This document shows positions 20,298 through 49,409 of a stretch of DNA of 64,000 nucleotides, piece by piece. Made by a program: the position numbers and the translations under genes. Source of the stretch: Gemmatimonadota bacterium (GTDB lineage: Bacteria > Gemmatimonadota > Gemmatimonadetes > Gemmatimonadales > GWC2-71-9); contig JBBIUN010000017.1 in NCBI GenBank assembly GCA_037440225.1, forward strand, positions 4,703 through 68,702. Direction: 5' to 3'. The first letter of the stretch is position 1. Each line of letters starts with the position of its first letter. Under the pieces are notes generated by a model, which was not told the DNA's origin, ran no database searches, and was given only the letters and a program-made list of their open reading frames with translations.

Positions 20298-20329
20298 CGC
20301 CCGGCAAGGGCCCCGCGGCCCGCCGGGCG
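20298..20329 (+). terminator. GC-rich compound hairpin after pilC (possible terminator, no U-tract)
   Basis: Outer stem cgcccggc(20298-305)/gccgggcg(20322-329). Inner stem gggcc/ggccc with a ccgc loop. No T-run follows. Confidence 0.35.
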
Positions 20330-20405
20330 AGGTTCGGGCGAACGCCCTCTCGCCCGCGCCGACCCCGAACGGTAAATCCCTCCCCGCAACAATCCGGAGG
20401 CCCCA

Positions 20406-21476: not shown

Positions 21477-21541
21477 CCAGGACGACTAGACGCAGCGCGC
21501 CCAAGCGCGGCAGCGTGGCCCGGCTCGATCCGCGAGGGAGC

Positions 21542-22261
21542 CTACCCTGCCTCCTCACCTCGGCCCTCGGGGCCCTCCGGTTTGCCAGGTCCGCCTCCAC
21601 CCGTGGACTCGCCGGTCTGCGGCCCCTGCCATCCCAGCGATTGGGCCCGAGCGAGCAGCTCGCGGACTTCCTCGTCCGTGGTCTGCGTGAAATCCTCGTA
21701 CCAATACCCCACCGCGCCGAACGCGGGAGGGACCAAAGCGCAGACCACATCGTCGGCCTCGCGGAGCAAGAGATCCCGCGCCTGGACCGAGCAGACCGGC
21801 GCCGCGATGACGACGCAAGCAGCCCCGAGCTGCCGTACCGCCTTGAGCGCCGCCAGCGCCGTCGAACCCGTGGCAATCCCGTCGTCCACGATGACCGCCG
21901 TCCGGTCCCGAACTTGAGGCTTAGCCCCGCCAAACAGCGCCACCCGAGCCTCTACTTCACCGCGCTCCCGCTGGATGACCTCCTCGACGTAACTGCGAGG
22001 TACCCCAAGAAAGCGGATGGTCTCCTCATCGAGCACCGTGACCCCCGGGGCCACGGCGCCGATGGCCAGTTCCGGGCGCCCCGGCGCACCCAGCTTGCGG
22101 ACCACCAACACGTGCAGCGGCGCTTCCAAACCCTGAGCCACCTCGTACGCCACGCACACCCCGCCCCGGGGCAGCCCCAGCACGACCGGCCGCTCCGCGC
22201 GGTACGAGGTCAACATCCCGGCTAACCGGCGCCCCGCTTCCCGGCGGTTGGCGAAGACCAT
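21542..22261 (-). CDS. Phosphoribosyltransferase-domain protein
   Basis: Start trimmed to the ATG at 22261 (MVFANRREAGRRLAGML…VVLGLPRGGV…). PRPP-binding loop AVIVDDGIATGST. The upstream part of the 393-aa track ORF looks non-coding. Confidence 0.7.
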   Translation of the reverse strand: MVFANRREAGRRLAGMLTSYRAERPVVLGLPRGGVCVAYEVAQGLEAPLHVLVVRKLGAPGRPELAIGAVAPGVTVLDEETIRFLGVPRSYVEEVIQRERGEVEARVALFGGAKPQVRDRTAVIVDDGIATGSTALAALKAVRQLGAACVVIAAPVCSVQARDLLLREADDVVCALVPPAFGAVGYWYEDFTQTTDEEVRELLARAQSLGWQGPQTGESTGGGGPGKPEGPEGRGEEAG

Positions 22262-22390
22262 GCGATTTCCCCTCCTAGGCTGCGGTCCCGCCACCGCCAG
22301 GAAACCTAGCTGAAACCGCACCTGGCAGCCTCCCAGCTTCAGCCACGGTGTCTTGCATTTTGCCAGACCGGGCCGGATACTTCCGGGACG

Positions 22391-25439: not shown

Positions 25440-26180
25440 ATGGCCGGCACCCCCATCCCGCGCGACTGGAACGACATCCTCCTCACCGCCGTCATGCCGG
25501 CCTACAACGAGGAGGCCACCGTCGAGGCTGCGGTGCGCCGACTCCGGGAGGCTCCCCTGCGGCTGGAAATCATCTGCGTCAACGACGCCTCCCAGGACCG
25601 GACGGGCGAGATCCTGGAGCAGCTCAAGGGGCAGGGTCTGGTAGATCGGGTCATCCACCAACCCCGCAACCTGGGCAAGGGCGCCGCCGTGCGAGCCGGC
25701 ATCCGAGCCGCCACCGGCCACGTCATCGTGATCCAGGACGCGGACCTGGAATACGATCCCGCGGACCTACCAACCCTGCTCGAGCCCATCCGCCTCGACA
25801 AGGCAGACGCGGTCTTCGGGTCGCGCTTCCAAGCGGGACCGCGCCGGGTGCTCTATTTCTGGCATTCGGTGGGGAACCGGTTCTTGACCTTGCTCTCCAA
25901 CATGTTCACCGATCTCAACCTGACCGACATGGAAACCTGCTACAAGATGGTGCGGGCGGACCTCATGAAGTCGCTCGAGCTTACGTCCAATCGGTTCGGC
26001 ATCGAGGTCGAACTGACCGCCCGCCTGGCCCAGGCAGGGGCGCGCATCTGGGAGGTCCCCATCAGCTATAGCGGGCGCACCTACGCCGAGGGCAAGAAAA
26101 TAGACTGGCGAGATGGCATGGCCGCCATCTGGCACATCATCAGGTTCAATCTGTTCAGGCCGCGGCGCCGGACTCGGTGA
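25440..26180 (+). CDS. Family 2 glycosyltransferase, polyprenyl-phosphate sugar synthase-like
   Basis: The ATG lies 2 nt after the pilR stop. AVMPAYNEE…ICVNDASQDRT…VIQDADLEYDP…(ED) motifs of a GT-A/GT2 fold. ~246 aa, resembling dolichyl-/undecaprenyl-phosphate glycosyl synthases. Confidence 0.75.
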   Translation: MAGTPIPRDWNDILLTAVMPAYNEEATVEAAVRRLREAPLRLEIICVNDASQDRTGEILEQLKGQGLVDRVIHQPRNLGKGAAVRAGIRAATGHVIVIQDADLEYDPADLPTLLEPIRLDKADAVFGSRFQAGPRRVLYFWHSVGNRFLTLLSNMFTDLNLTDMETCYKMVRADLMKSLELTSNRFGIEVELTARLAQAGARIWEVPISYSGRTYAEGKKIDWRDGMAAIWHIIRFNLFRPRRRTR

Positions 26181-28165
26181 TCGCCCGCCTGACCCGCGCC
26201 GCCTGGCTCGCCATCGGCGCGGCGCTCCTGGTGCTGCCCGCCTTGCCCCTGCCTGCCTGGTCGGGAGCCCCCGATGCTGGCCCCATCTGGACCCCCCAAG
26301 TGGAAGCCTGGGGCATCGGACTCGCCGCGGTGCTTGCCATAGCCCTCACGGCGGGCCGCGCCGCCCGCTGGATGCCAGGTGTCGAGGTACCCTGGCCCCG
26401 GCTGCCGGACAAAGCCCTCCTGGCCGCGGCGGCCCTGTTGCTGAGCGTGGGGGCGGCGTACGTCATGCAGCACCTGTTCGCCGGCAATCCGCACCTGGTT
26501 GACGAGATGGCCCAGCTCTTCCACGCCCGGGTCTTCGCATACGGCCGGCTCGCCGCCCCACGGCCCGAGCCACCGGCTGCGTTTCTCATCACCCACACTT
26601 GGACCACAGAGGCCGGTTGGGTCTCCCAATACCCGCCGGGCCAGACGGCATTGCTCGCGCTGGGTCTCTTGCTCCGAGCGGAATGGCTGGTCAATCCCAT
26701 CCTCGGTGGGCTGAGCACCCTCTTGGTATACCGAGTGGCCAAGGGGCTCTACGGGCGCGCCACCGCCCTGGCCGCAGCACTGCTGTGGGCCCTCTCGGCG
26801 TGGGTGCTGTTCATGTCGGGCACCTACCTGAACCACGTAGGCGCCGTAAGCTTCGCCTTGGTTGCTTGGGCCGTGGTCCTGGGGTCGCGCGAGCATCGTA
26901 CCTGGCACTGGCTGGTCGCGGGCGGCGCGCTCGCCGCCACCGCCGCCACGCGGCCCCTCGATGGACTGGCCGCAGCGCTGCCCCTTCTCGTGTGGATCCT
27001 AGGACACCATCGCCGCCTGGCAGCGTTGAGCTGGATGACCGCAGGCGGCCTGCCCATCATGCTGGTCTGGGGCTACCTCAACTGGCGCATCTACGGCCAC
27101 CCCCTGAGGCTGGGCTACACGGCGCTCTACGGCTCCGAACACAGCTTGGGATTCCATCCCGATCCCTGGGGCCAGCCCTTCACGCCGGCTATCGCCCTGA
27201 GTAACCTGGCCGTAGGCATCCGCCGGCTCCACCTCTACTTGTACGAATGGCCCATCCCGGCCCTCCTCCCCTTGGCTGCTTGGGCCGTGGCCGGCCGCCA
27301 GCGCCGCTTGAGGGACCTGGTCCTCGCCGCCGGAATCATCTCCGTTCCGGCGCTCTACTTCTTCTACTGGCACTCGGGCTTCTACCTCGGGCCCCGGTTC
27401 TATTACACGGCCGCCCCCTTTCTGGTGATCGCTACCGCCCGTGCTTGGCGGGCGGGCTGGCTCTGGGCTCACCGGCGGCGGTCGGGTCCGGTGCGAGCTG
27501 ACGTGGCGCTCGCCGCCGCCGGGCTCGGCGTGGTGCTGTGGGGATCGCTCGGTGTTCTGCCAAGCCGCTGGGAGGTTTACCGCGAGGGCCTGGCCACGCT
27601 CAAGCTCCATCCGGAGCGCGAACTTGCCGCCCGCGGCGTCCGGCGCGCCCTGGTGCTCGTTCCCGAGAGCTTCGGCAGCCGCACCATCGTGCGGCTCTGG
27701 GCCTTAGGAGTGCCTCCAGGATTGGTCGAGCGCGCCTACCGCCGGCTGGACACGTGCGATCTCTATCGCTTCACCAGAGCTGCGGAGGCCGCCGCTTGGC
27801 CCCCGCCGGATGTGACGGCACGCTTGGAACGCCTGGAGGAGGCAACCGGCGATCCACCTCCGCTGCTCAAGACCTGGCCGGACCCCACCGTCCGGTTCCG
27901 GCCCGGATCCACCCCGCCGGAGGAATGCCAGGTAGAACTGCGCCGCGACCTCGCCGGGTTTACCCTGTTCGGCTACCTGGCGTGGCGGAATCCCGTGGGA
28001 CTCTCGGATGGGGTCGTGTTCGCGCGCGATCTCTTCGAGCAGAACCCGGCGCTCTTGGCCCGCTATCCGGGCTGGGAAGTGTGGCGATTCGCCCCCCGCC
28101 CGGATCGGCCCAACGGCCCGCCGGTGCTCACCCGCCTAGACCCTCACCCCGAGGCGCCGCGATGA
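26177..28165 (+). CDS. Polytopic GT-C-type glycosyltransferase (ArnT/PMT_2-like) with soluble C-terminal domain
   Basis: GTGA overlap with the GT2 gene. 662 aa with more than 10 TM segments. First-loop acidic motif HLVDEMAQLFHA and a YPPG motif. The ~200-aa C-terminal domain is non-membrane. Confidence 0.6.
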   Translation: MIARLTRAAWLAIGAALLVLPALPLPAWSGAPDAGPIWTPQVEAWGIGLAAVLAIALTAGRAARWMPGVEVPWPRLPDKALLAAAALLLSVGAAYVMQHLFAGNPHLVDEMAQLFHARVFAYGRLAAPRPEPPAAFLITHTWTTEAGWVSQYPPGQTALLALGLLLRAEWLVNPILGGLSTLLVYRVAKGLYGRATALAAALLWALSAWVLFMSGTYLNHVGAVSFALVAWAVVLGSREHRTWHWLVAGGALAATAATRPLDGLAAALPLLVWILGHHRRLAALSWMTAGGLPIMLVWGYLNWRIYGHPLRLGYTALYGSEHSLGFHPDPWGQPFTPAIALSNLAVGIRRLHLYLYEWPIPALLPLAAWAVAGRQRRLRDLVLAAGIISVPALYFFYWHSGFYLGPRFYYTAAPFLVIATARAWRAGWLWAHRRRSGPVRADVALAAAGLGVVLWGSLGVLPSRWEVYREGLATLKLHPERELAARGVRRALVLVPESFGSRTIVRLWALGVPPGLVERAYRRLDTCDLYRFTRAAEAAAWPPPDVTARLERLEEATGDPPPLLKTWPDPTVRFRPGSTPPEECQVELRRDLAGFTLFGYLAWRNPVGLSDGVVFARDLFEQNPALLARYPGWEVWRFAPRPDRPNGPPVLTRLDPHPEAPR

Positions 28166-29985
28166 AGCGCTGGACGGGCGAGTGGCGCCTGCTCGTTGCC
28201 GCTGCCCTGCTCGGTGCCGGCGCCTACGCCGCCACCGCGGGCTTTCAGTTCGTGTACGACGACGTGCACATCATCCAGAACAAGGCCTTGTTGCACTCGC
28301 TCGCTAATTGGCGAGAGATCCTCCGGACCACCTGGTGGGGGCACTCCCTCTACCGGCCGTTCACCGAACTCACCTTCGCCCTGGACTGGACCCTCTCCCA
28401 TGGCGACCCGCGATGGTTCCACGTGGTGAACGTCCTGCTCCACGGCGCGGTGAGCGCTCTGGTCTATGCGCTGGCCAGAAGCGGCCTGAGCCCGGTGGGA
28501 GCGGGCGCTGCGGCGCTGCTTTTTGCGGTCCATCCCGTGCACGTCGAAGCCGTGGCCAACGTGGTGGGTCGGGCCGAACTGTGGGCTGCCCTGTTCACCC
28601 TGGTCGCAGCCCTCGCCTATCGCTGGGACGGGAGGTTGGCCGCTCGTGGAAACCACACCTGGCGCCGCGCGGCGACGTCGCTCGCCTCCCTGCTCGCGGT
28701 ATTCCTCGGCATGGCTTCCAAGGAGACCGCCTTTGCCACTCCGGGCGTCCTCCTGCTGGTGGATTGGTGGGAAGGCCAGCGCACCGGGGAGGGGGCGGCC
28801 CCCACGTTCCGCCGCCACTGGGTGTTGTGGGCTGCCACGGTGGCGCTGAGTCTCGAGTGGCTGTGGATCCGCGCCGGCGTCCTGGGCGAACTGGCCGGGG
28901 ACCATCCCGCGGCCGGGCTGGAGGGCGAGGGCCTGTTGGGCCGGGCCGTGGTGATGGCCCCGGTCGTGCTGCAGTACGCCCGGCTGCTCTTTTTCCCTGC
29001 GCGGCTCTCAGCAGACTACTCTCCCAACTTTCTCCCAGTGCCCGGGAGCTTTACCGGCTCCGTAGCGGCTGGCTTGGTGCTCGCGGCTGCGGCACTGGCG
29101 CTCGCTTTCCGCGCCCGCCAGCGCGCTCCCGCGCTGGCCTTCGGGATCGCCTGGATTGCCGGCACCCTGTTGATCGTGGCGAACCTGATCGTGCCCACCG
29201 GCGTGCTCCTGGCTGAGCGCACCCTGTACCTCCCATCGGTGGGCGCCGTCGTCATGCTCGGCTGGCTGGCCGCCTGGGCCGAAGCCAACTGGCGCCACGC
29301 CGGCGTCGCGCTGGCGGGGCTGGGCGTGGCGTTGGGTATGGCCCGCACCGCCACCCGCATCCCGGTATGGTCGGACAACGCCCGCTTCTTTCCCCAGTTG
29401 GTGAAGGATGCCCCCGGTTCCTATCGCAGCTACTGGGTGGCTGGGGCGATGGCCTACGACGCCGGGGACCCGCGGCGCGGAGAGGCTCTGCTGCGCCGGG
29501 CCCTCGACATTTACCCGCTGCACCCCCGAATGTGGGAGACGCTGGCCGCCCAGCTCGAACGCCAGCAGCGCTGGCTCGAGGCGGCCCAGGCTTTTCGCGC
29601 CGTCTATACGCTGGACAGCACCAACCTCGAAGACGGCGCTCGCGGAATCTTGGCCTTCCTCCGCGCGGGCATGCCGGACAGCGCTCTTTCCTTGGCCGCG
29701 CGCCTCGGCGCCGCCTACCCGGACGCGCCCGCCTACCTCGCCGCCAGGGCGGAGATCGCGCGGGCCCAGGGAAAGCTGCTCGAATCCATGACCTGGCGCC
29801 GCCGGCTGGCTTGGGCGGACCCCAAGGTCTGGCAGTATTGGTTCCTCACCAGCCAGGCGGCACTGGAGGTCCGCGCCTGCTGGGAGGCTCGCCGCTCCCT
29901 GGAAAGGGCGAAAGCGTTGGCCCCGGCCGAACCCCGCCTTGCCGAACTCGAGCAGCGCGTGGCGAAATCCGACTGCCATGCGTGA
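28162..29985 (+). CDS. TMTC-like GT-C membrane glycosyltransferase with C-terminal TPR repeats
   Basis: ATGA overlap. Start trimmed to MKRWTGEW…. First-loop motif FQFVYDDVHIIQNKAL (TMTC/DUF1736-like). About 9-11 TM segments. C-terminal TPR-like repeats (…YRSYWVAGAMAYDAGDPRRGEALLRRALDIYP…). Confidence 0.6.
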   Translation: MKRWTGEWRLLVAAALLGAGAYAATAGFQFVYDDVHIIQNKALLHSLANWREILRTTWWGHSLYRPFTELTFALDWTLSHGDPRWFHVVNVLLHGAVSALVYALARSGLSPVGAGAAALLFAVHPVHVEAVANVVGRAELWAALFTLVAALAYRWDGRLAARGNHTWRRAATSLASLLAVFLGMASKETAFATPGVLLLVDWWEGQRTGEGAAPTFRRHWVLWAATVALSLEWLWIRAGVLGELAGDHPAAGLEGEGLLGRAVVMAPVVLQYARLLFFPARLSADYSPNFLPVPGSFTGSVAAGLVLAAAALALAFRARQRAPALAFGIAWIAGTLLIVANLIVPTGVLLAERTLYLPSVGAVVMLGWLAAWAEANWRHAGVALAGLGVALGMARTATRIPVWSDNARFFPQLVKDAPGSYRSYWVAGAMAYDAGDPRRGEALLRRALDIYPLHPRMWETLAAQLERQQRWLEAAQAFRAVYTLDSTNLEDGARGILAFLRAGMPDSALSLAARLGAAYPDAPAYLAARAEIARAQGKLLESMTWRRRLAWADPKVWQYWFLTSQAALEVRACWEARRSLERAKALAPAEPRLAELEQRVAKSDCHA

Positions 29986-37910: not shown

Positions 37911-38749
37911 ACCGGCGCGGGTTCACGCTGGCGGAACTCTTGATCGCCCTGGTGCTGTTCGGCATCGTCTCCACGGCGATTTACCAAGTGCTGGTGAACA
38001 ATCAGCGGCTCTACCGGCAGCAAACCCAGCGCATCGAGCTGACGGACAACATCCGGTCCGCCACAGCCATCCTGCAGACCGATCTCCGGGAGCTGAACGC
38101 CGCCGACCCCTTAGGCAGTGACATCGTGGAGATGACGGATTCCTCGCTCACCTACAAGGCGATGCGAAGTCTGTATGTCACCTGCCAGCCGGTCTCCGGA
38201 GGCACCGTGATCCTGGACACCACGATGATCGGCCTTCGAGGGCTCGACGCCGAGTTCGACTCGCTGCTGGTCCTGGCCGACCTCAACACCCAGCTCGCCA
38301 GCGACGATGTCTGGCGGCACGTGAACGTGACCGCGGTCCAGCGGAGCACCTCGTGCCCGTCGGGCCAGCCCAGCATCAACGTGTCGGTAAGTCCGAGCAT
38401 CGCGGGGACCGACAGCGCGCTGGCGGGATACCCCGTGCGCGGCTTCGAGGTCGTGGACGTGCGCCGCTATGCCGATGCCTCGGGGGCCATTTGGTTGGGC
38501 AGCCGGCGCTACAGCAAGAGCACTGGCTGGAGCGCCCTGCAGCCGGCGGTGGGGCCGCTGGCGACTGGCGGACTTCGTTTCACCTACTTCGCCCGGGACG
38601 GGAGCATCACCAGCAACCGGTCGCTGGTCGCCAGGATCGGCATCACCGTGGTGGGACGCACCTCGCAACCAGTGCGGCTGAATGACCGGACGACAGGGTA
38701 TCTGACGGACAGCCTGACCACCTATGTGGCCTTGCGGAATAACAGGTGA
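37904..38749 (+). CDS. pilW: PilW-like minor pilin
   Basis: MLNRRG|FTLAELLIALVLFGIVSTAIYQVLVNNQRLYRQQ…. 281 aa. 7-nt overlap with the pilV-like gene. Confidence 0.7.
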   Translation: MLNRRGFTLAELLIALVLFGIVSTAIYQVLVNNQRLYRQQTQRIELTDNIRSATAILQTDLRELNAADPLGSDIVEMTDSSLTYKAMRSLYVTCQPVSGGTVILDTTMIGLRGLDAEFDSLLVLADLNTQLASDDVWRHVNVTAVQRSTSCPSGQPSINVSVSPSIAGTDSALAGYPVRGFEVVDVRRYADASGAIWLGSRRYSKSTGWSALQPAVGPLATGGLRFTYFARDGSITSNRSLVARIGITVVGRTSQPVRLNDRTTGYLTDSLTTYVALRNNR

Positions 38750-38926
38750 GGCGCCCCCTTGTGGCTGCAGGCCGGGCCGGTCCGCGCCTTCTTTGCAGGT
38801 ACTTGGCGCGGGTCGAACGGAGGTCGGCCTGGGGTTGGAGGCCACGGGAACCGGGTACCGGAGCGACCGAGGTCAGGTGCTGGTAGCAATCTCGTGGCGG
38901 AAATCTCGTAGATCAGGAGCGCGGCG

Positions 38927-40042
38927 ATGAAGCGGATCGGAAACGAAGGCGGCATGGCGCTGGCGGTGGCAATCTTCGCCCTGGTCATCGTGGGCGGCTT
39001 GGTGGCGGGATCGCTCTTTGTGGCCACCCTGGAGCAGCGAGTGGGCCGCAACACCCTGCGCCAGCAGTCTGCCTTCAACGCGGCGGAGGCGGCCACCCAA
39101 CAGGCGGTGCTGGACTGGAGCACCGGGGCGTATAGCAGCTTGGCGGTGGGAGGCTCCGTGACCACCACGGGGACGGCAACCGGCGGGGCCTGGTACCGGC
39201 GCACGGTGCAGCGGCTGAGCCAGATGCTCTTCCTCGTTCGGACCGAAGGGTTCAGTGCCGATTCATCTTCCCGGCAGAGGCTGGGGGTACTGGTGCGGCT
39301 TCGGCCCCTGGCTTTCAACATCAATGCGGCCCTGAAAACCCAGGGCTCGGCGAAGTTTGGGGGATCCTCCTACATCAACGGGGTGGATACCCCGCCTTCC
39401 GGATGGGCCGGTTGCCCCGCCACCCAGCCCACCCAGCCGGCGGTCCGCATCCCGGACCCGAGCCAGATCACCTACTCCGGCTGTAGCAACCAGAGCTGCT
39501 TGAACGGGAGCCCCAAGGTCCTGCAGGATACCAGCATCAACTCTGGCACCCTGACCACGGTGGGGGATATTCCGTTCGACTCCCTCAGGAACTACGCCAC
39601 CAAGGTTGTCTATCCCAGCGGCACCCCCAAGATTCAGCCGTCGCTGACGGGCACGAGCTGCAACACCTCCGACCCGTTGAACTGGGGAGACCCCTTGAAC
39701 CCCGCTCTCCCCTGCGGCAGCTACTACCCCATCATCTGGGTGGACGGGAACGTGAGCATCAACGGGGTCGAGGGTCAGGGCGTGCTGATCGTCAACGGAG
39801 ACCTGAGCGTCCAGGGCGGCTTCGAGTTCTTTGGACCGGTACTGGTCAAGGGGAGCCTGAAGACCACCGGCACCGGGGGCCACTTCAACGGGGGCGTCAT
39901 CGCCGCCAACGTGGACCTGGAACAGAACACCGTGCTGGGCAACGCCGTGGTCAACTACTCGAGCTGTGCCTTGATCCGGGTGCTCACCGCGACGGCGAAC
40001 GGCAGCATCCTCAGGGAGCGAAGCTGGGTGAATCTCTACTAG
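38927..40042 (+). CDS. PilX-like pilus protein with long Cys-containing, Gly-rich C-terminal extension
   Basis: The N-terminus GGMALAVAIFALVIVGGLVAGSLFVATLEQRVGRN resembles the PilX_N domain and lacks a G|F cleavage site. 371 aa. The C-terminal part carries repeats such as VSINGVEGQGVLIVNGDLSVQGGFEFFGPVLVKGSL. SD aggag lies 7 nt upstream. Confidence 0.55.
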   Translation: MKRIGNEGGMALAVAIFALVIVGGLVAGSLFVATLEQRVGRNTLRQQSAFNAAEAATQQAVLDWSTGAYSSLAVGGSVTTTGTATGGAWYRRTVQRLSQMLFLVRTEGFSADSSSRQRLGVLVRLRPLAFNINAALKTQGSAKFGGSSYINGVDTPPSGWAGCPATQPTQPAVRIPDPSQITYSGCSNQSCLNGSPKVLQDTSINSGTLTTVGDIPFDSLRNYATKVVYPSGTPKIQPSLTGTSCNTSDPLNWGDPLNPALPCGSYYPIIWVDGNVSINGVEGQGVLIVNGDLSVQGGFEFFGPVLVKGSLKTTGTGGHFNGGVIAANVDLEQNTVLGNAVVNYSSCALIRVLTATANGSILRERSWVNLY

Positions 40043-40186: not shown

Positions 40187-41236
40187 ATGGCGCTTTTTGG
40201 GCTCGGGGGATCGAAAACGACGGTGGGCTTGGACATCGGCAGCGGCTTGATCAAGCTCGCGGCCATTGACCATGGCAAGGGTGAGCCCGTGCTGGCCAAG
40301 GTGGCGGTGGCCCCGGTGCTGCAGGATGCCATTGTCGAGGGCGAAATCATGGACCCGGGGGTGGTGGCCGAGGCCATCCGGGGCGTGATGAGTACTGCAG
40401 CGATCAAGCAGAAGCGGGTAGTGGCGGCGGTGGGTGGGCGCGATGTGATCATCAAGAAGATCCAGGTTGACCGGATGAAGGAGAGCGATGCCGCGGACGT
40501 GGTGCGCTGGGAGGCACAGCAGCACGTGCCGTTCGACATCGAAGGAGTGGCCCTGGACTTCCAGGTGCTGGATCCCGAGGGCGAGGGCGTCCAGATGGAC
40601 GTGCTGCTGGTGGCGGCCAAGCGCGAGCTGGTGGAAAACCGCACCGCCCTGCTGGCCGAGGCCGGGCTCGAGGCTGCCATCGTGGACGTGGACGCCTTTG
40701 CCCTGCACAACGCGTTCGAGGTGAACTACCCTGAGGCTATGCAAGGGGTCGTGGCCCTGATCCACGTGGGCCACGAGGTGACCAACGTGAACCTGCTGCA
40801 GGATGGCGTCCCCTTGCTCACGCGGGACTTGAGCGTGGGAACGCGGAAGTTCCGCGAGGAACTCCAGCGCGAGCGGGGCCTGTCGGCCGAGGAGGCGGAC
40901 CGCCTGATTCAGGGCTTCGAGCGGACGCCGGAGCTGGAGCCGTTCGTGCGGAACTTGAGCGAGGAGGTTGGGGTGGGGGTGGAGCGGGCCGTGGCGTTCC
41001 TGCAGTCCGCTTCCCGGGAAGCGGGCCAGGTGCAGCGGGTCTTCTGTTCTGGCGGAGGCTCCCGGATCCCCGGCCTGGCGGACACGCTGGGGGATCGGCT
41101 GCGGTTGCCGGTGGAGGTGGCCGACCCGGTCCGGGGCTTGAAGGTGAAGGAGGAGGCCTTCGGATCCCTGTCGGTGGACGAGGTGGCTCCGCTGCTGATG
41201 CTGGCGGTCGGGCTGGCGTTGAGGAAGGTCAACTAG
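40187..41236 (+). CDS. pilM: Type IV pilus assembly protein PilM (actin-like ATPase fold)
   Basis: 349 aa. VGLDIGSGLIKLAAI…VDVDAFALHNAF…CSGGGSRIPGL. Confidence 0.9.
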   Translation: MALFGLGGSKTTVGLDIGSGLIKLAAIDHGKGEPVLAKVAVAPVLQDAIVEGEIMDPGVVAEAIRGVMSTAAIKQKRVVAAVGGRDVIIKKIQVDRMKESDAADVVRWEAQQHVPFDIEGVALDFQVLDPEGEGVQMDVLLVAAKRELVENRTALLAEAGLEAAIVDVDAFALHNAFEVNYPEAMQGVVALIHVGHEVTNVNLLQDGVPLLTRDLSVGTRKFREELQRERGLSAEEADRLIQGFERTPELEPFVRNLSEEVGVGVERAVAFLQSASREAGQVQRVFCSGGGSRIPGLADTLGDRLRLPVEVADPVRGLKVKEEAFGSLSVDEVAPLLMLAVGLALRKVN

Positions 41237-41266
41237 GCGCCGGCCGTGGGGCCTGGCGTGGTTGCC

Positions 41267-41968
41267 ATGATCGAGATCAACCTGCTTTCCGGCCAGAAGC
41301 GCAAGACGCGGGCAGGTGCCGGCTTCCGGATGCCGGACGTTGCCGCGCTGGCTGCCCGCATCAAGGACCCCCTGCTGCTGGGCGCGGTAGGCGCGTGGGC
41401 GGTGGTGCTGGTGGCCGTGGGCTTCGTGTACCGCGCCGAGAGTCGCAAGTTGGCGGTGGCTCAGCGGGAGTTGTCTCGTGTCGAGGCCGACGCCCGGCGC
41501 TTTCAGGCCCTCATCAATCAGAAGCGCAAGGAAGAAAAGCTCAGAGATTCCCTGGTCGCGGAACTGGACGCCATTCGGGCGATTGACGCGGATCGGTACG
41601 TCTGGCCCCACATCCTCGAAGAGATCACCAAGGCCTTGCCGGACTACACCTGGCTGGAATCGGTGGGCGTGCTGCCCGGCGGGGGCGCCCAGGGGGCCGG
41701 CGGGGGCGGGCAGCCGGCCGACAGCGCCGCCGCAGCCAAGCCGGTGGTGCGGGTGCTGATTGACGGCAGAACCGCGGACATGGGCGGCTACACTCGGTTC
41801 CTCCGGCAACTCAACGATTCGCCCTGGCTCACCGATGTGGTGGCTGGGCCGACGAAGACCGTGATCGAAAACGACAAGCCGGTGCTGTCGTTCACCGTGA
41901 CCGTGACCTTCCGGCAGGCGGACTCGGCGTTTATCCGGACCGCCCCGGTCCTGGAATCGGTCCGGTAG
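41267..41968 (+). CDS. pilN: Type IV pilus assembly protein PilN
   Basis: Start trimmed to MIEINLLSGQKRK, a typical PilN start. One TM segment, a coiled-coil, and an unusual Gly/Ala-rich insert (GGGAQGAGGGGQPADSAAAAKP). Confidence 0.8.
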   Translation: MIEINLLSGQKRKTRAGAGFRMPDVAALAARIKDPLLLGAVGAWAVVLVAVGFVYRAESRKLAVAQRELSRVEADARRFQALINQKRKEEKLRDSLVAELDAIRAIDADRYVWPHILEEITKALPDYTWLESVGVLPGGGAQGAGGGGQPADSAAAAKPVVRVLIDGRTADMGGYTRFLRQLNDSPWLTDVVAGPTKTVIENDKPVLSFTVTVTFRQADSAFIRTAPVLESVR

Positions 41969-41977: not shown

Positions 41978-42592
41978 ATGCCTCTAGGTGCCAAGGAGCG
42001 CCAGCAGCTTCTGGGGTTCGCCATCTTCCTGGCGGTGATCGGCGCCGTGGCCTTTTGGATGTACTGGCGTTCGCCCAAGGAAGCGGAGCTGGCCAGCATT
42101 CGCGTGCGGGCGGATTCGCTCAGGGCCCGGGTGGATTCGGCTCGGAAGGACCTGGCGCAGGGGACGGTCGAGGCCCTCAGGCAGCGGGTGCGCGACTACG
42201 AAGCCAGCTTGAGGCTGATGCGCACGCTGGTGCCCACGGGGGCCGAAGTGCCCAGCCTGATTGACGACGTGTCGGCGCGGGCGAAGCGGCGCGGCGTGGA
42301 GATTGCCGAGATCACCCCGCTCAGCCCGGAACCGGGCAGCCCCTTCGAGACCCACCGGTATCGGTTTGCGGTGATTGGGCATTACGACGAGATCGGCGAG
42401 TTTCTCTCCGACGTCGCGTCGCTGCGGCGGATCATGGTCCCCTTCGACGTCTCGATCACGCGCGCCAGCCAGACGGCGACGGCGACGTATGCGGACAGCT
42501 CGGGCGCCCTGACGCAAGCGAGCTTCCAGCTGCGGACGTTCGTCAAGTCGGGGGCCCCGGCGGATACCAGCGCGGGAGGGCAGCAGCCTTGA
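41978..42592 (+). CDS. pilO: Type IV pilus assembly protein PilO
   Basis: 204 aa. N-terminal TM segment, coiled-coil, then a ferredoxin-like domain. Lies between pilN and pilP. Confidence 0.75.
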   Translation: MPLGAKERQQLLGFAIFLAVIGAVAFWMYWRSPKEAELASIRVRADSLRARVDSARKDLAQGTVEALRQRVRDYEASLRLMRTLVPTGAEVPSLIDDVSARAKRRGVEIAEITPLSPEPGSPFETHRYRFAVIGHYDEIGEFLSDVASLRRIMVPFDVSITRASQTATATYADSSGALTQASFQLRTFVKSGAPADTSAGGQQP

Positions 42593-43110
42593 GGCACGCG
42601 CTGGTGGCGGCCTGGCTGGCGGCCCTAGTGGCCTGCGCCGGAGAGGGGCCGGCCCCGCAGCGGGGCGCCCCCGCCCAACAGCCGCCGGCGCCGGGGGCGC
42701 AGGCCCAGCCGGCACCGCCCCCGGGGGCTGCTGCGCCGGCGGTCTCCGGTGCGGATACCAGCCGGGTGGACACCATGGCCAGCCGGACCAGGCTGGTGCG
42801 GGAGGTTTTTGCGTATCGCAGCGGCGGGCGGGATCCGTTCCGTTCGCTGCTCACCTCGGGCGACGTCCGCCCCCTGCTGGAGGACCTCCGCCTGATGGGG
42901 ATCTGGTACGATGCGACGTATCCGGCCCGCAGCGTGGCAGTCTTGCGGGATGTGTCGGTGAACAAGCGTTACGACGTGCGCGTGGATGACGAGCTGGGGC
43001 GCATGCGCGTGGTCGAAATCCGGCCCACCGAGATCGTGCTCGCGGTCGAGGAGTTCGGGGTCGAGCGCCAGGTAACACTGGCGCTGAAGAAGCAGGAGGG
43101 GGTTCCATGA
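42589..43110 (+). CDS. pilP: PilP-like lipoprotein
   Basis: TTG start overlaps the pilO stop (TTGA). Lipobox LVAC. Pro/Ala-rich linker, then a beta domain (…YDVRVDDELGRMRVVEIRPTEIVL…). Confidence 0.7.
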   Translation: MRHALVAAWLAALVACAGEGPAPQRGAPAQQPPAPGAQAQPAPPPGAAAPAVSGADTSRVDTMASRTRLVREVFAYRSGGRDPFRSLLTSGDVRPLLEDLRLMGIWYDATYPARSVAVLRDVSVNKRYDVRVDDELGRMRVVEIRPTEIVLAVEEFGVERQVTLALKKQEGVP

Positions 43111-44960
43111 TGCGGTCGCTGTTCCTTGCCGTAGCCGGCTTGAGCCTGATGGCGCCCTGCGCCGCGGCCGGGTCCATCGCGCCGGCCGCCGGGCCCGGGG
43201 CGGTCACCGCGGTCAGCGTGCTGCCCAGCCCGGGCCGTGCCCAGGTGGTGATCGCCGTGAGCGGCAGCGTGAGTGTCCAGGACTTCACGCTGGCGTCGCC
43301 CGACCGGCTGGTGATTGACATCGTGGGGGCCTCGCTGGCGGCGCCGTACGTGCAATACGACGGGCAGAACCGCGGCGGCATCGTCAATCTGCGGTATGCC
43401 CAGTTCCGGCCGGACGTGGTGCGGGTGGTGCTGGAGTTCGAGCGGCTGACGGGCTACGAGCTGGATCAGGCGGACGGAGCCATTACGGTGACGCTGGGCA
43501 CGGACCGGAGCTTTGCCGCCTGGACCTCGGGGGACCCGGGGTGGGCCCGCAGCCTGGCCCGCTACGCGGCGTCGCAGGCCCCGCCCGCGGAGCCTACGCC
43601 GGCGGGCGCTCCGGTTCCCCCGGAGGCTCAGCCGCAGCAATCCCAGCAGCCTGCCATCACCGCTTCTTGGGACGGCGCCTCGATCTCCGACGTCATCGCG
43701 GGCTTTGCCGCCTTCAGCGGCAAGACCATCATCGTGGGTAAGGGCGTTACCGGGACGGTGACTGCCACGGTCAAGAACCAGCCGTGGGACATCGCCTTCC
43801 AGCAGATTCTGCAGTCGCAGGGGCTGGCCGCGCGCGAGGAGTTCCCCGGGGTCATTCGGGTGGACGATCAGGCCCAGCTGGCCAAGCTGGACTCGATCGA
43901 GCCGCTGGAAACCCGCATTCTCCGGGTCAATTATGCTCGCGCCACGTCGCTGGTGCCGGCGCTCGACGCCATCCGGTCCAGTCGCGGCAAGGTGGTGGCC
44001 GACACGGCCACCAACAGCCTGATCATTACCGATGCGGCAAGCCGGATTGACAGCTACAGCCAGTTCTTGAGCCAGCTCGACGTGCGCACGCCCCAGGTCT
44101 CGATCCAGACCAAGCTGGTCTTCGTGGACCGGACGGACCTGGAGAACCTGGGACTCAAGTACGATCTGGGGTCCCAAACCCAGTTCTTCAATCGCTTGAT
44201 CCAGCGGGGAGACCCCAGCACCGCCCAGCCAGTGGACACCAACGGCGACGGTGTCCCGGACGCGGTCCGGCCCACCGAGACCTTCAACCCGGAGGACGTG
44301 GTCATTGACTTGGGTGGCAATTCGCTTTCGGCCATCGCCAATGCGGAAGCCACGGTTCCCAGTGCGGCGCTCCGGCTCATCTTTTCGACCGCCATCGGGA
44401 GCTTCAACCTGACGTCCTTCCTGGAGGCCCTGGAGCAGGTGCAGCTGGCGGATCTCCAGGCGGAGCCCGTGATTTCCACCGCGGACAATACGCAGGCGTA
44501 CATCCTGGTGGGCGAACGCACGCCCATCCGGGTGGTGGATGTGAGCGCTCCCACGACGGGCGGGCAGAACGTGCCGCGGGCCACGGTCAACTTCCAGCAG
44601 ACGGGTATTCTCCTCCGGGTCACCCCGCACGTCACCAACAACCGGCAGATCCTGATGAGCCTGCGGGCGGAGAATTCCAGCGTGGCCTCCGCGCCGGGGG
44701 ACATCGGGTTCACCTTCCAGACCCAGGAAGCGGAGAACCACATCCTGGTGAACGACGGCGAGACGGCGGTGATTGGGGGGCTCACGGTGACCCAGATCAC
44801 GGTGGCGAAGACCGGGATCCCGTTCCTTGTGGACCTGCCCGTGCTGGGGCGGCTGTTCGGATTCACGTCCCGGCGGGAGCAGCGGCGGGATCTCTTGATT
44901 TTGGTGACGCCGCGGATCATGGATCAGCTCCCCGGGGGCGCCGCCCCCGAGCGGCAGTAG
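43107..44960 (+). CDS. pilQ: Type IV pilus secretin PilQ
   Basis: ATGA overlap. Signal peptide, AMIN domain (VTAVSVLPSPGRAQVVIAVSGSV…RLVIDIVGA), N0/N1 domains, and a secretin core (…GERTPIRV…TPHVTNNRQILMSL…NDGETAVIGGL…IPFLVDLPVLGRLF…LLILVTPRI). Confidence 0.9.
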   Translation: MMRSLFLAVAGLSLMAPCAAAGSIAPAAGPGAVTAVSVLPSPGRAQVVIAVSGSVSVQDFTLASPDRLVIDIVGASLAAPYVQYDGQNRGGIVNLRYAQFRPDVVRVVLEFERLTGYELDQADGAITVTLGTDRSFAAWTSGDPGWARSLARYAASQAPPAEPTPAGAPVPPEAQPQQSQQPAITASWDGASISDVIAGFAAFSGKTIIVGKGVTGTVTATVKNQPWDIAFQQILQSQGLAAREEFPGVIRVDDQAQLAKLDSIEPLETRILRVNYARATSLVPALDAIRSSRGKVVADTATNSLIITDAASRIDSYSQFLSQLDVRTPQVSIQTKLVFVDRTDLENLGLKYDLGSQTQFFNRLIQRGDPSTAQPVDTNGDGVPDAVRPTETFNPEDVVIDLGGNSLSAIANAEATVPSAALRLIFSTAIGSFNLTSFLEALEQVQLADLQAEPVISTADNTQAYILVGERTPIRVVDVSAPTTGGQNVPRATVNFQQTGILLRVTPHVTNNRQILMSLRAENSSVASAPGDIGFTFQTQEAENHILVNDGETAVIGGLTVTQITVAKTGIPFLVDLPVLGRLFGFTSRREQRRDLLILVTPRIMDQLPGGAAPERQ

Positions 44961-44979
44961 CCGGAAGGACCTGACCGCC

Positions 44980-47406
44980 ATGGGGCACCTGGGACAGCGG
45001 GGCGCGCTCGCGCTTCTGGTCGCAAGCCTGGTCTTGGCCTGCGCCGAGCAACGCTTTCGACTCGGCTTCGAGACGGACACCCAAGCTCCCACCGTCTCCA
45101 TCGTCAAGACGGCGGGCGATACCATGGACGTCGCCAAGGGCGTTCAGTTCACGGTGTCTGCGCGGGACAACCTGGGATTGAAGACCATCACCATTTCATT
45201 GCGAGGCGGCCTGCTGTTGGACACGGCCATCACGTTCACCAGTGCGGTGACGACCGCGGACGTGGCGGTCAATCTCTCCCAGCCCCCGAACTCGACGGTT
45301 GGCGGCAGGATCACGATCGATGTCACGGCAACGGATGGCAACAACAACTCTGCTACCGCCAGGGATTCGATCTTCGTCATCAACCTCAAGGCGCTGAGCG
45401 TAACGCTGTTCAATCCGACTCCGGGAGCGGTCACGGCTCCGGGCAAGCAGCTTCCCATCGAGGTGTTGGCCACGCAGGCCTCCGGGATTCGCCTCGTGGG
45501 GTGGGAGACTGTGGGTGCGGTGAACGTCAAAGACTCGACGTTTTACGCCAACCAACCGGACACGGTGCGGCTGTCGGATACGCTGGCGATTCCCGCCAAT
45601 GCATCGGCAGGGACGTTCTTGGTAAGCGGCTTTGCGGTGGACTCGGCGGGACGGCGGGTGACCAGCAGCGCGGTGACGGTGACCGTGCAGCTGGTCGTGG
45701 CCGACTCCATCGGACCGGTGGTCAGCTTCTCGGTGCCGCGGCGCGTGGAGGTACGGGATTCTATCACGGTGAGAGCCAGAGACCCGAGCGGCGTCGCTTC
45801 CATCGGCTGGGTAGCGCGCGATGCGGGCGGCACGGTCCTGGGCGGAAAGACCACCACCTTGGGCGGGACGCTGACTGACGTCTCGGTCACGGACAATTTG
45901 AACCTCAGCCTCACCGCCGCCCAACTCCCCAAGCTCGCCGTGATCAAGGCCTTCGCCACCGACGCGGCGGGCAACACCGATTCTGCTCGCGTGGACACGC
46001 TCCGGGTGGCCCCCGTCCGGGCGGACAGCATCACGGTGGTGAACGGCATTACCAAGCCGCTGCCGGCCGGCGGCCGCGTGGCGGACGCCATTTTCAACCG
46101 CAATCAGAACCGGGTGTATCTCACCAACATTGATCTCGACCGGCTGGAGGTCTTCGACGTCAGCGATACCTCGTTCAAGACCGCGATCCCGGTGGGGTCT
46201 CGGCCTTGGGGCATCGCGCTCTGGCCGCGCGATGCGGCCGCCGGGACCAATGCGGACACCGTGATCGTGGCCAATTCGGGAGGTACCGATCTCTCGATCG
46301 TGGACGTGAGCCTGGGCCAGCAGCGCCGGCGAGTCCCGTTGCCGCTTTTCCGGGTCCAAACCGTCCACTCCAAGGTGGATCCCGCCACGGGCGTCATCAA
46401 CCAGGAAATCACCGAATACACGGTCTCGGATCGACCCCAGTACCTCGGTGTGGTGTGCCGCGGTGGCGGCACCTGTAAGCCCGGCGGGACGGGCGACGTG
46501 CTGGCGGTGTATTCCACGACACCCACGGCAGGCCAGAGCAACCCGCTGCCTCGCCGCGGCACGGTCCGCTGGGAGAATCTCACCTCCGCCACACCGCAGT
46601 CGCACCTCTTCTGGGAGCAAGCGGGTGCCACGTTCACCTCGGCCAACGACACCCTGCAGCTCTTCGTCAACCGCGGCCCCACGGTGCCGGAGGAACTGGT
46701 GTTGGGGGCGCTGTGCGGGCGGGTGGTCAACAAGCAGGAGTTGGGATTCCTCGACACCACCTTTGTGCGCAACTCGGGGAACTTCTCGCGGATCATCATT
46801 GGCGAGGGAGGGTCCAGTGCTACGCCGGCCTTGGCGTTCGCCCGCGCCCTGACGTACGACGTGTCCTTGGGCCTCCAGACCAATACGTGTGGTACCCAGA
46901 GTGAGCAGGTGGATCTGGGCATCGCCGGAGCGCTCGAGGTGCGAAGCTTCATCGCCAACACGGCCATCCCCGTACGAGCCGTGGGGATCAATTTCAATGG
47001 GCTGGTGAGCTTGGTCCGTGCCGACTCGGTATACGTGCTGGACCAGAACCTGAGACTCAAGGGCCTCATGTCCATCGGCGGGCCGAACTTCGGCATGGAT
47101 TTGAACTTCAACCACGACTTCGACCCCAACACCGGAGCCTCCGCCAGCGGGACCGTCACCAAGGACGAGCGCGTGGCCTTCGTGGCGAGCCCGGATCCCC
47201 AGATTGACGTCTTCGACACGTTCTACTTTGGCAAACTCGCCAGCATCCCCATGCGGGACCCGGTGATCGGGCCGCTGCGCGTGGCCAAGCTCCCCTCGGG
47301 CGAACAGGTCCTGATCGGCGTCACCGCACGCGGCGTGGTCACGGTGCGACTGCCCGCCATCAGCAATAGCTTTCCGGCCAGCCGCTGGCCGGGAGGCCAA
47401 CCGTAG
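44980..47406 (+). CDS. 808-aa predicted lipoprotein: three Ig-like repeats followed by a beta-propeller-like domain; function unknown, in the pilQ operon
   Basis: Lies 19 bp after the pilQ stop. Lipobox-like LVLAC. Three ~100-aa modules end in …A(R/T)D..GN… (VSARDNLGL, TATDGNNNSA, AFATDAAGNTDSA). YVTN-like propeller strands follow (RVYLTNIDLDRLEVFDVSD…IPVGSRPWGIALWP…VIVANSGGTDLSIVDV). Confidence 0.6.
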   Translation: MGHLGQRGALALLVASLVLACAEQRFRLGFETDTQAPTVSIVKTAGDTMDVAKGVQFTVSARDNLGLKTITISLRGGLLLDTAITFTSAVTTADVAVNLSQPPNSTVGGRITIDVTATDGNNNSATARDSIFVINLKALSVTLFNPTPGAVTAPGKQLPIEVLATQASGIRLVGWETVGAVNVKDSTFYANQPDTVRLSDTLAIPANASAGTFLVSGFAVDSAGRRVTSSAVTVTVQLVVADSIGPVVSFSVPRRVEVRDSITVRARDPSGVASIGWVARDAGGTVLGGKTTTLGGTLTDVSVTDNLNLSLTAAQLPKLAVIKAFATDAAGNTDSARVDTLRVAPVRADSITVVNGITKPLPAGGRVADAIFNRNQNRVYLTNIDLDRLEVFDVSDTSFKTAIPVGSRPWGIALWPRDAAAGTNADTVIVANSGGTDLSIVDVSLGQQRRRVPLPLFRVQTVHSKVDPATGVINQEITEYTVSDRPQYLGVVCRGGGTCKPGGTGDVLAVYSTTPTAGQSNPLPRRGTVRWENLTSATPQSHLFWEQAGATFTSANDTLQLFVNRGPTVPEELVLGALCGRVVNKQELGFLDTTFVRNSGNFSRIIIGEGGSSATPALAFARALTYDVSLGLQTNTCGTQSEQVDLGIAGALEVRSFIANTAIPVRAVGINFNGLVSLVRADSVYVLDQNLRLKGLMSIGGPNFGMDLNFNHDFDPNTGASASGTVTKDERVAFVASPDPQIDVFDTFYFGKLASIPMRDPVIGPLRVAKLPSGEQVLIGVTARGVVTVRLPAISNSFPASRWPGGQP

Positions 47407-47431
47407 AACCGGTGGCCGCTCCCAACGCCTC

Positions 47432-47464
47432 GAACCCGGCCACCCGGCCGGGTTTCGCGTTTGT
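47432..47464 (+). terminator. Intrinsic terminator after the pilQ-lipoprotein operon
   Basis: 9-bp stem aacccggcc(47433-41)/ggccgggtt(47446-54), accc loop, followed by tcgcgtttgt. Confidence 0.6.
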
Positions 47465-47649
47465 GCCCCGCGTGCGGCATCCGGCAGCCGGCAGCAGAAC
47501 CGGCCACGGGTGCCCGGCGGCGCTTCGCCAACCGGCAATGAGGGCTCGAAGACGGGCTGCTAGCCAGGCCCCGGGCCAGGAGCCAGCAGGCCGTGCCACC
47601 CGGCAGACCCGGCAAGGAGATCACGCCCCATGATGTGTGCACCTGCAAG

Positions 47650-48891
47650 ATGATCCGCTTTACCACCGCCGGCGAGTCTCACGGAAAGGCCTTGGTGGCC
47701 ATCCTGGAAGGCATTCCCGCAGGGTTGCCGCTGCTTGCCGCGCAGGTCAATCACGAGCTGCGCCGGCGCATGAGCGGTTACGGCCGCGGGGCGCGGATGC
47801 AAATCGAAGCCGATACCGTGGAGTTCCTGAGCGGGGTACGAGCCGGGGAGACCATAGGCTCGCCCATCGCGATGCTCATCGCCAATCGCGACTGGGAAAA
47901 CTGGGCCGACGTGATGGCACCTGAGCCGGATGCCGAAATGGTTCCCCCCGCCGGCGAGGGACAGCCGGCAGCTGAGGCCGGCGGGCGAGGCCGCCGCCGG
48001 CAGGTCAAAAGACCCCGGCCGGGACACGCCGACCTGGTGGGCGTCCTCAAGTACGATCGCAGCGATGCCCGCGATATCCTGGAGCGCGCCAGCGCGCGAG
48101 AGACCGCCGCCCGCGTCGCCTGCGGCGCCGTCTGCCGGCGGCTGCTGGAAGAGTTCGGGGTCGAAATCGGAAGCCACGTGGTGGAGCTTGGGGGAATCCG
48201 CTCGGAGATCCCGGATCCCTTGCCCACCCCGCTCAACCAGGCGGCGGAGACCTCGCCGGTGCGCTGCCTGGATCCCGCCGCCTCGGAGGCCATGGTCAAG
48301 GCGATTGATGCGGCCAAGCAGGCCGGCGACACCTTGGGGGGCGTAGCGGAAGTGGTGGCGCGAGGGCTCCCACTCGGCCTGGGGTCGCACGTTTCCTGGG
48401 ACCGGAAGCTCGACGGCCGCATCGCCCAGGCCGTGATGTCCATCCCCGCGGTCAAGGGCGTGGAAATCGGCTTGGGCTTCGAAGCCGCGCGCCGGCCGGG
48501 CTCCCAGGTCCACGACGAGATCCTCGCCGGAGGTGGCTCGCAGGCCGGCGGCTTTGCCCGGCGCACCAACCGCGCCGGCGGCCTGGAGGGCGGGATCACC
48601 ACCGGGGAACCCCTGGTGGTGCGGGTCGCGATGAAGCCCATCTCGACCCTCATGCGGCCGTTGGCCACGGTGGACCTCGCCACCGGCGCCACCGCCAAAG
48701 CCCAATCGGAACGCTCCGACGTCACCGCGGTGCCCGCCATGGGCGTGATCGCCGAGGCCATGCTGGCTCTGGTGCTCGCGGGGGCGATGGTGGAGAAGTT
48801 CGGGGGAGATTCGCTGGTCGAAATGCGCGCCAACTACAGCGCCTACCTCGAGCGCCTGAGCCGCCGCTGGGACCGGCTCAAGGGCGAATGA
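47650..48891 (+). CDS. aroC: Chorismate synthase AroC
   Basis: Start trimmed to MIRFTTAGESHGKALVAILEGIPAGL. …RPGHADL…RSDVTAVPA…. Contains an Arg/Gly/Ala-rich insert. Confidence 0.9.
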   Translation: MIRFTTAGESHGKALVAILEGIPAGLPLLAAQVNHELRRRMSGYGRGARMQIEADTVEFLSGVRAGETIGSPIAMLIANRDWENWADVMAPEPDAEMVPPAGEGQPAAEAGGRGRRRQVKRPRPGHADLVGVLKYDRSDARDILERASARETAARVACGAVCRRLLEEFGVEIGSHVVELGGIRSEIPDPLPTPLNQAAETSPVRCLDPAASEAMVKAIDAAKQAGDTLGGVAEVVARGLPLGLGSHVSWDRKLDGRIAQAVMSIPAVKGVEIGLGFEAARRPGSQVHDEILAGGGSQAGGFARRTNRAGGLEGGITTGEPLVVRVAMKPISTLMRPLATVDLATGATAKAQSERSDVTAVPAMGVIAEAMLALVLAGAMVEKFGGDSLVEMRANYSAYLERLSRRWDRLKGE

Positions 48892-49409
48892 AGCGCCACA
48901 TCGTGCTGGTGGGCCTGCCGGGGAGCGGCAAGACCACGGTAGGCCGCCTGGTGGCTGCCCGACTGGGCGCGCCGTTCGTTGATCTGGACGACGCGATCGA
49001 GCGGCGTGCCGGCCGAACCATCTCCCAGCTCTTTGCCGAATGGGGCGAGGCACACTTCCGGATGCTCGAGCGCGAAGAGATGCGCCGCGTGCTGGCCGGC
49101 GAGCCCGCGGTCGTGGCCCCGGGCGGCGGGTGGGCTGCCCAGCCGGGGAACCTGGACGGCTTGGCGGGACTCGTGTTTACCGTCTACCTGGCCGCCAACC
49201 CGGAGCTGGCTGCAGCGCGGGCCGCCCGGGCACCGGAGGGCCGGCCCCTGCTCGCCGGGGCCGACGTGGAACGCATGCGCGAGCTTTTCGCCCTGAGGCG
49301 GGCCTTCTACGAACGGAGCGAGGCGGTAGTCCCAGCCGACGCCTCCGATCCGGATCGAGTGGCTGCCCAGGTGGTCGAACTTGCGCGATCCCGGGCCGGG
49401 TGGTATTAA
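48888..49409 (+). CDS. aroK: Shikimate kinase AroK
   Basis: ATGA overlap with aroC. IVLVGLPGSGKTTVGR…FVDLD..IE…FR..E. Confidence 0.85.
   Translation: MKRHIVLVGLPGSGKTTVGRLVAARLGAPFVDLDDAIERRAGRTISQLFAEWGEAHFRMLEREEMRRVLAGEPAVVAPGGGWAAQPGNLDGLAGLVFTVYLAANPELAAARAARAPEGRPLLAGADVERMRELFALRRAFYERSEAVVPADASDPDRVAAQVVELARSRAGWY

Follow-up and report, generated by a model that had tools for sequence, protein, structure and literature searches.

The type IVa pilus parts list has been drawn mostly from Proteobacteria, Myxococcus, and Thermus. Gemmatimonadota are a poorly studied soil/sediment phylum, and in a 64-kb stretch of DNA from an uncultured Gemmatimonadales bacterium (the window, to which all coordinates refer unless another contig is named), the secretin gene pilQ is directly followed by a gene, here called X, whose product has neither a family assignment nor a solved relative. 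What is this protein, and is it part of the pilus machinery? We find that the X family is essentially always encoded directly after pilQ, apparently as the sixth gene of the pilMNOPQ operon and coupled to the secretin gene as tightly as any core component, phylum-wide. Its product is a predicted lipoprotein with an immunoglobulin (Ig)-like stalk and a C-terminal β-propeller, and it is probably an undescribed, lineage-specific component of a known machine. Our tentative reading is that X is tethered to a membrane and assists the secretin module of the type IVa pilus as an accessory protein, an assignment to which we give slightly less than an even chance.

The host genome is 68% G+C, at which long open reading frames (ORFs) are expected by chance, and an antisense ORF of 780 aa indeed lies largely inside X. 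It failed the codon-position composition filter and was rejected as a high-GC artefact. X, on the other hand, is a real gene and its plus-strand frame is coding, because its codon-position composition (GC3 0.84, GC2 0.50) resembles that of the adjacent genes, a homology search returned more than 1,200 homologues, and the fold of its product is predicted with confidence.

A profile of the X family matched 322 cluster representatives at E ≤ 1e-30, and relatives were found in 538 genomes in a scan with one genome per species. The best 80 of these 538 genomes are all labelled Gemmatimonadota, Gemmatimonadales, or Gemmatimonadaceae, and the named members of divergent clusters likewise carry Gemmatimonadota labels. 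The position next to pilQ, noticed in the window by an initial annotation of this DNA, proved to be a trait of the family, divergent subfamilies included. Indeed, pilQ lies immediately upstream of X in 72 of the 73 assessable fetched loci, the lone exception being an N-terminally truncated match, and aroC lies downstream in 71/74. The same order, pilQ then X, was returned by nine of nine protein look-ups, which covered members with 43–54% identity as well as very divergent or long forms (P0148, P0183, P0263, P0158, P0221, and P0100) and included divergent members matched at E 1e-58 to 1e-75. In eight of these look-ups aroC is the next gene after X; the ninth contig (L089) ends before that position. 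The two genes are also close together. Genes were called in ten places, of which the window is one; the pilQ-X gap measures 7–24 nt in nine of them, and in the tenth (L005) the X call overlaps pilQ by 23 nt.

In the window, the X start codon follows the pilQ stop codon after 19 nt, as first annotated, on the same strand and with no terminator in the spacer. Together with the conserved adjacency, these features support, on sequence grounds, the earlier proposal that the pilMNOPQ operon ends with X. The product encoded at the pilP position was assigned by that position and its lipobox; it has no Pfam match and only a weak match to the NCBIfam model GspC_delta (E 1.9e-06), far below cutoff. We also considered whether PilQ could be a self-piloting liposecretin and rejected this, since its N terminus (...LMAPCAAAG) has Pro at −1 and therefore no lipobox. 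The operon was further said to end in a good intrinsic terminator, which stands in part. A GC-rich hairpin is present, with a 10-bp stem (7 G-C pairs, z-score −1.7), but its U-tract is interrupted (CGCGUUUGUG) and a consensus terminator scan made no call there. Strong GC-rich hairpins of unrelated sequence are found 13–92 nt past the X stop codon in nine of nine related loci, which argues that X closes the operon throughout the family.

The N terminus of the X product (MGHLGQRGALALLVASLVLAC) is a lipoprotein signal, in which R7 is followed by ALALLVASLVLA and then C21, in agreement with a PROSITE PS51257-type pattern. Lipidation is therefore predicted at the end of the LVLAC motif (residues 17–21) that the initial annotation had picked out and that a hydrophobic stretch precedes. 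Among 33 aligned homologues, at least 90% share Cys21, and 101 of 110 near-full-length homologues have a lipobox, as do the distant subfamilies. AlphaFold2, run on an alignment of 33 sequences, returned a model (pLDDT 81.5, pTM 0.68) with three β-sandwiches followed by a β-propeller, which bears out the three Ig-like modules and the propeller-like C-terminal region, noted as YVTN-type, that were previously read from the sequence. The predicted propeller is closed, with a strand pattern compatible with seven or eight blades. X has no above-threshold match in Pfam, NCBIfam, or PDB, and its full-length profile found nothing significant among PDB sequences. Below threshold, Big_7 (PF17957) scores 15.8 bits in the window protein (gathering cutoff, 24.1) and is matched by 17 of 33 family members (best E 3e-07), and the YVTN repeat model TIGR02276 scores 20.4 bits at residues 377–413 (cutoff, 27.85).

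The propeller has recognizable relatives when taken alone. A propeller-only profile matched the PDB sequences of a Methanosarcina mazei surface-layer protein with a YVTN propeller (1L0Q; E 8.7e-11) and of the Leptospira lipoprotein Lp49 (3BWS; E 0.0016). In both alignments only blades 1–2 of X align, matching each repeat of the target, and the later blades have diverged past sequence recognition. A Foldseek search of PDB with the whole model gave only matches to Ig arrays (complement C3 and α2-macroglobulin) with a query-normalised TM-score of about 0.3 or less. Because this was uninformative, the propeller was modelled alone (pLDDT 70, pTM 0.77) and searched anew, which returned ordinary seven-bladed WD40 propellers such as WDR5 (target-normalised TM-score about 0.70, E about 1e-9). 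One partial homologue (P0105) carries the NCBI name "YncE family"; we rejected this label as generic, because hhalign against Escherichia coli YncE gave a probability of 3.4% over 25 aligned columns.

Table 1. Coordinates of X, its predicted domains, and the surrounding operon in the 64-kb window.
Feature	Coordinates	Strand	Description	Evidence
X	44980-47406	+	808 aa; lipoprotein, three Ig-like domains plus β-propeller; ATG start	ORF, composition, homologues, AlphaFold2
Predicted lipoprotein signal peptide	44980-45042	+	residues 1-21; LVLAC lipobox with Cys21	sequence; Cys21 conservation
Ig-like domain 1	45091-45381	+	residues 38-134; Big_7-like	AlphaFold2 β-sandwich; Big_7 at residues 37-94, E 0.022
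Ig-like domain 2	45397-45687	+	residues 140-236	AlphaFold2 β-sandwich; weak match to bacterial Ig domain 9KVU, E 0.039
Ig-like domain 3	45718-45990	+	residues 247-337	AlphaFold2 β-sandwich; detected family-wide by purpose-built domain hidden Markov models
β-propeller	46024-47349	+	residues 349-790; blades 1-2 YVTN-type, later blades divergent; 7 or 8 blades	AlphaFold2
Antisense ORF	45196-47538	-	780 aa	composition filter failed
pilM	40187-41236	+	first gene of the operon	PF11104 (PilM_2), E 4e-64
pilN	41246-41968	+		PF05137 (PilN), E 1.6e-07
pilO	41978-42592	+		PF04350 (PilO), E 1.4e-17
pilP-like	42589-43110	+	lipoprotein gene	pilP position; lipobox LVAC
pilQ	43107-44960	+	secretin; AMIN, N0, Secretin_N, and Secretin domains	PF00263, E 7.9e-41; PF03958, E 5.1e-14; PF11741, E 7.9e-13
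Shine-Dalgarno-like GGAAGGA	44964-44970	+	in the 19-nt pilQ-X spacer	read from sequence
GC-rich hairpin	47432-47465	+	probable operon terminator; 10-bp stem at 47432-47455; U-tract weak/interrupted	fold

What could a lipoprotein of this build do beside a secretin? Lipidation at Cys21 would fix X to the outer membrane next to the PilQ channel. The Ig stalk would serve as a spacer and the conserved propeller head as an interaction module, whose ligand would be PilQ, the fibre as it emerges, or another partner in the envelope or outside the cell. X could in this way help the secretin to assemble, to be stabilised, or to be gated, or could assist the pilus where it exits, and either orientation of the head, toward the periplasm or toward the cell surface, would be allowed. 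Such a role, for which we infer both the outer-membrane location and contact with PilQ, would be akin to that of TsaP- or pilotin-class secretin partners, with unrelated domains. An outer-membrane partner of the secretin was also among the alternatives offered by the initial annotation, and it is the one that we favour. Besides the coupling to pilQ, the lipobox, and the predicted fold, further observations agree with it: sequence conservation is highest in the propeller, the residues after the Cys differ from those of the PilP-like lipoprotein (both detailed below), and a complete type IVa pilus supercluster is present in the window. Median identities to the window proteins over 49 loci are 71% for AroC, 68% for PilM, 57% for PilQ, 56% for PilP, 49% for PilN/PilO, 43% for X, and 38% for the PilX-like minor pilin, which places X between PilN/PilO and the PilX-like protein. 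We dropped the correlation of identities as a proxy for co-evolution (Spearman coefficients with X of 0.84 for PilM, 0.66 for PilQ, and 0.49 for AroC), because phylogeny confounds it. The lengths of X (808–1286 aa) and PilQ (593–682 aa) show no correlation by eye.

Four points weigh against the secretin-partner assignment. The pil genes are part of a block, continuing with aroC-aroK-topA-trmFO-xerC-hslVU, that is syntenic across the phylum, so that adjacency alone is weaker evidence than it appears and could reflect inertia. The stalk varies from three to at least eight Ig domains, a range that fits poorly with an unvarying periplasmic arrangement around a secretin and is more typical of adhesins displayed on the surface. 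Known pilotins and TsaP are far smaller and have other folds. Finally, the membrane destination and orientation of lipoproteins are not readable from sequence in this phylum. A bolder version, which we regard as doubtful, makes X an obligatory, hitherto unrecognised part of the structure of the type IVa pilus machine in Gemmatimonadota. Lipid-anchored stalks would then form a ring or cluster with propeller heads at the secretin and do the jobs of pilotin, TsaP, or PilY1 in other systems; alternatively, X would be a surface receptor from which DNA or other ligands are passed to the pilus as it retracts, a ComEA-like gene being found beside pilB.

The first of these points leads to the possibility that X acts in the envelope without any connection to pili, perhaps as a periplasmic binding protein or enzyme, and only happens to lie in a stretch of chromosome whose gene order is frozen across the phylum. 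Consistent with this, the downstream genes aroC, aroK, topA, trmFO, xerC, and hslVU are nearly as conserved in position, as seen above for aroC, and the invariant polar residues of the propeller could make an active site. However, the two sides of X are not alike. The X-aroC spacers measure 83–335 nt and contain the hairpin, against the few nucleotides that separate pilQ from X. Moreover, the pilQ-X pair outlasts local rearrangements on both sides. In one Gemmatimonadales contig (JBFHWR010000001.1, about 2300–11534; loci L004 and L038), the minor-pilin genes run into pilQ and pilMNOP are absent at the site, yet pilQ and X, here 1286 aa long, are still paired. In another locus (L016, 8484–9124), topA directly follows X, and the intervening aroC and aroK are missing. 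Survival of the pair in both rearrangements argues for a specific bond between pilQ and X. In addition, neither the fetched loci nor the protein look-ups yielded a family copy away from pilQ. We therefore consider a function unrelated to pili improbable.

A stronger competitor to the secretin-partner assignment, although still unlikely in our view, is that X is a stalked surface adhesin or ligand receptor that is co-expressed with the pilus genes without being a structural part. Anchored in the outer leaflet, its stalk would lift the propeller past the lipopolysaccharide to bind a substrate, a partner cell, or DNA. The anatomy of the family fits such a protein. The order is invariant (lipobox, Ig stalk, and one propeller). 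Domain hidden Markov models derived from the alignment were applied to 152 members with a near-complete propeller; by their count, 125 have three Ig domains and about 19 have from four to at least eight, the additional domains being inserted between the anchor and a conserved Ig3-propeller unit. A lipobox, tandem Ig domains in varying number, and a single terminal domain are a typical surface-protein build, the nearest sequence relatives of the propeller are the surface-layer protein 1L0Q and Lp49, and X resembles Lp49-like lipoproteins, which combine Ig-like domain(s) with a propeller. The residues after the Cys of the lipobox may also be relevant here. Of 53 distinct X N termini, 49 have an acidic residue at +2 or +3, against only 1 of 29 PilP-like proteins, which carry Gly-Gly at those positions in these operons. 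This systematic difference suggests that X and the PilP-like lipoprotein are sorted differently, and the acidic signature could signal surface export. Furthermore, a gene encoding a ComEA-like protein lies beside pilB, and a DNA-uptake role of the cluster is possible.

Against a free-standing adhesin, its near-invariant, tight coupling to pilQ instead of to pilin genes is not obviously needed, and the family alignment contains no hypervariable region. Conservation is even along the protein: the top residue has a mean frequency of 0.57–0.59 across the Ig domains and of 0.66 across the propeller. The head is thus the most conserved part, and most of the polar residues that are invariant (R, D, E, H, and N) lie there. 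We also know of no documented surface export of lipoproteins in Gemmatimonadota. The adhesin and secretin-partner readings are not exclusive, however, since they are compatible if X is surface-exposed beside the secretin.

Another suggestion in the initial annotation was that X could be a non-homologous functional analogue of PilY1, an adhesin or anti-retraction factor. In that case X would be associated with the pilus and would prime assembly together with the minor pilins. Its premise was sound. The local minor-pilin operon (37009–40042) consists of four genes, none of which is pilY1, its largest product being a 371-aa protein without a Pfam family, and both here and in seven related places the minor-pilin operon lacks pilY1 and ends with a gene for a PilX-like protein of 289–412 aa. 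The PilY1, TsaP, and pilotin families found no match among the scanned ORFs of the window, which comprise most, not all, of the candidates. Both X and PilY1 also have a C-terminal β-propeller. Nevertheless, we did not uphold the suggestion and consider it very improbable. The conserved lipid anchor would hold X at the membrane and is ill-suited to riding a pilus tip, and X is encoded after pilQ, not among the minor pilins. The PilY1 family PF05567 has no match in the window protein at E ≤ 1 nor in any of 33 family members at E ≤ 0.1, and the resemblance of the propeller in Foldseek is of a generic WD40/YVTN kind, PilY1 being outside the top 50. Lack of PilY1 is common, many type IVa pilus systems being without it. 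Moreover, Gemmatimonadota are not devoid of PilY1, because a 2026 paper reports PilY1 homologues from this phylum and places Gemmatimonadota sequences in a PilY1 clade (PMC13190605); the supplements of that paper contain no Gemmatimonadota entries.

As for novelty, the statement that X is not a described type IV pilus component held up. No Pfam or NCBIfam family covers it, its database name is only "hypothetical protein", and we found no description in the literature of such a pilus-linked Ig-propeller lipoprotein. It is on this last result that we rate X as an undescribed and lineage-specific component. Should X bind PilQ, it would represent a new way to secretin assembly, anchoring, or gating, achieved with unrelated domains. 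Exposure on the cell surface would instead make X a new adhesin or receptor linked to the pilus. X is a testable target for the first functional pilus work in Gemmatimonadota, and a new protein-family model is justified for annotation.

The remainder of the window gives the setting of the operon. The rest of the type IVa pilus supercluster occupies 16178–25437 and 33514–40042 and encodes PilB, PilT, PilC, PilS, PilR, two pilins, and four minor pilins. The two pilin genes are found at 33514–34352, one of them with a ComP_DUS-type Pfam match (E 3e-06), and are accompanied by a second histidine kinase and a sigma-54 response regulator at 34238–36999. Directly upstream of pilB (16178), a 233-aa ORF (15415–16116, plus strand) contains two ComEA-type helix-hairpin-helix domains (HHH_3, E 2e-36); because this ComEA-like gene adjoins pilB, the supercluster may serve DNA uptake. 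Between pilSR and the pilin genes lie four successive genes (26177–33309, plus strand) for polytopic membrane proteins with 5–7 hydrophobic segments each and weak PMT_2 and GT87 matches, which are candidate pilin-glycosylation enzymes. The pilus operon is followed by aroC and aroK (47593–49409), as in related loci. This order is reminiscent of the pilMNOPQ-aroK-aroB linkage of Proteobacteria, with X seemingly inserted after pilQ and ahead of the aro genes. At the other end of the window are genes for a protein with a CarboxypepD_reg domain and an outer-membrane barrel (405–3560, plus strand) and for a 1993-aa SprA_N-containing protein (8334–14315, plus strand) resembling the translocon of the type IX secretion system (T9SS), with LptF and LptG encoded on the minus strand between the two. 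We rejected X as a T9SS cargo, because it ends 18 residues past the propeller and has no C-terminal sorting domain.

How, then, does X compare with known systems? Accessory proteins that act on the PilQ secretin, as proposed for X, include TsaP and the SlkA/SlkB pair, the latter two interacting with PilQ and preventing leakage (bioRxiv 10.1101/2021.09.13.460190). These are periplasmic, whereas X is predicted to be lipid-anchored, is much larger, lies inside the pilMNOPQ operon, and shares no domains with them. Its build is all-β, with Ig-like domains and a propeller, and LysM, the peptidoglycan-binding domain of TsaP, gave no match in X or in the 33 family members. Pilotins (the TPR lipoproteins PilF/PilW/Tgl and the GspS/PulS class) are lipoproteins like X; they are dedicated to secretins and in several systems are encoded beside the secretin gene. 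However, they are small proteins with TPR or α/β folds, whereas X has 808 aa and a variable Ig stalk, its model is all-β, and no TPR matches were found in it or in the 33 family members. The PilY1/PilC tip adhesins are large, pilus-associated, and end in a β-propeller as X does, but in X there is no PF05567 match, the signal peptide carries a lipobox where theirs is plain, the operon is another one, and the likeness of the propeller is only generic. By the defining features tested, X belongs to none of the TsaP, pilotin, PilY1, and YncE families.

Other parallels concern build more than role. Lp49, like X a lipoprotein whose Ig-like domain(s) precede a β-propeller, is a weak match to the propeller profile; the likeness of X to Lp49/Lig-type lipoproteins spans a single blade, and neither Lp49 nor the Lig-type proteins have a pilus link. 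In sequence, the X propeller has its best relative in the M. mazei protein 1L0Q, in which a YVTN propeller is likewise joined to an Ig-like (PKD) domain, but only blades 1–2 of X keep the YVTN repeat and this archaeal S-layer protein comes from an unrelated context. BamB is an outer-membrane lipoprotein with a β-propeller that serves a trans-envelope machine. PorE of the T9SS is another, although its domain content includes TPR and OmpA_C (PMC12773672), both of which X lacks, and for PorE and BamB the likeness to X is one of analogy only, with no homology shown. Taken together, X is closest in its proposed role to the secretin partners TsaP, SlkA/SlkB, and the pilotins, and closest in build to Ig-propeller lipoproteins and surface proteins such as Lp49 and 1L0Q.

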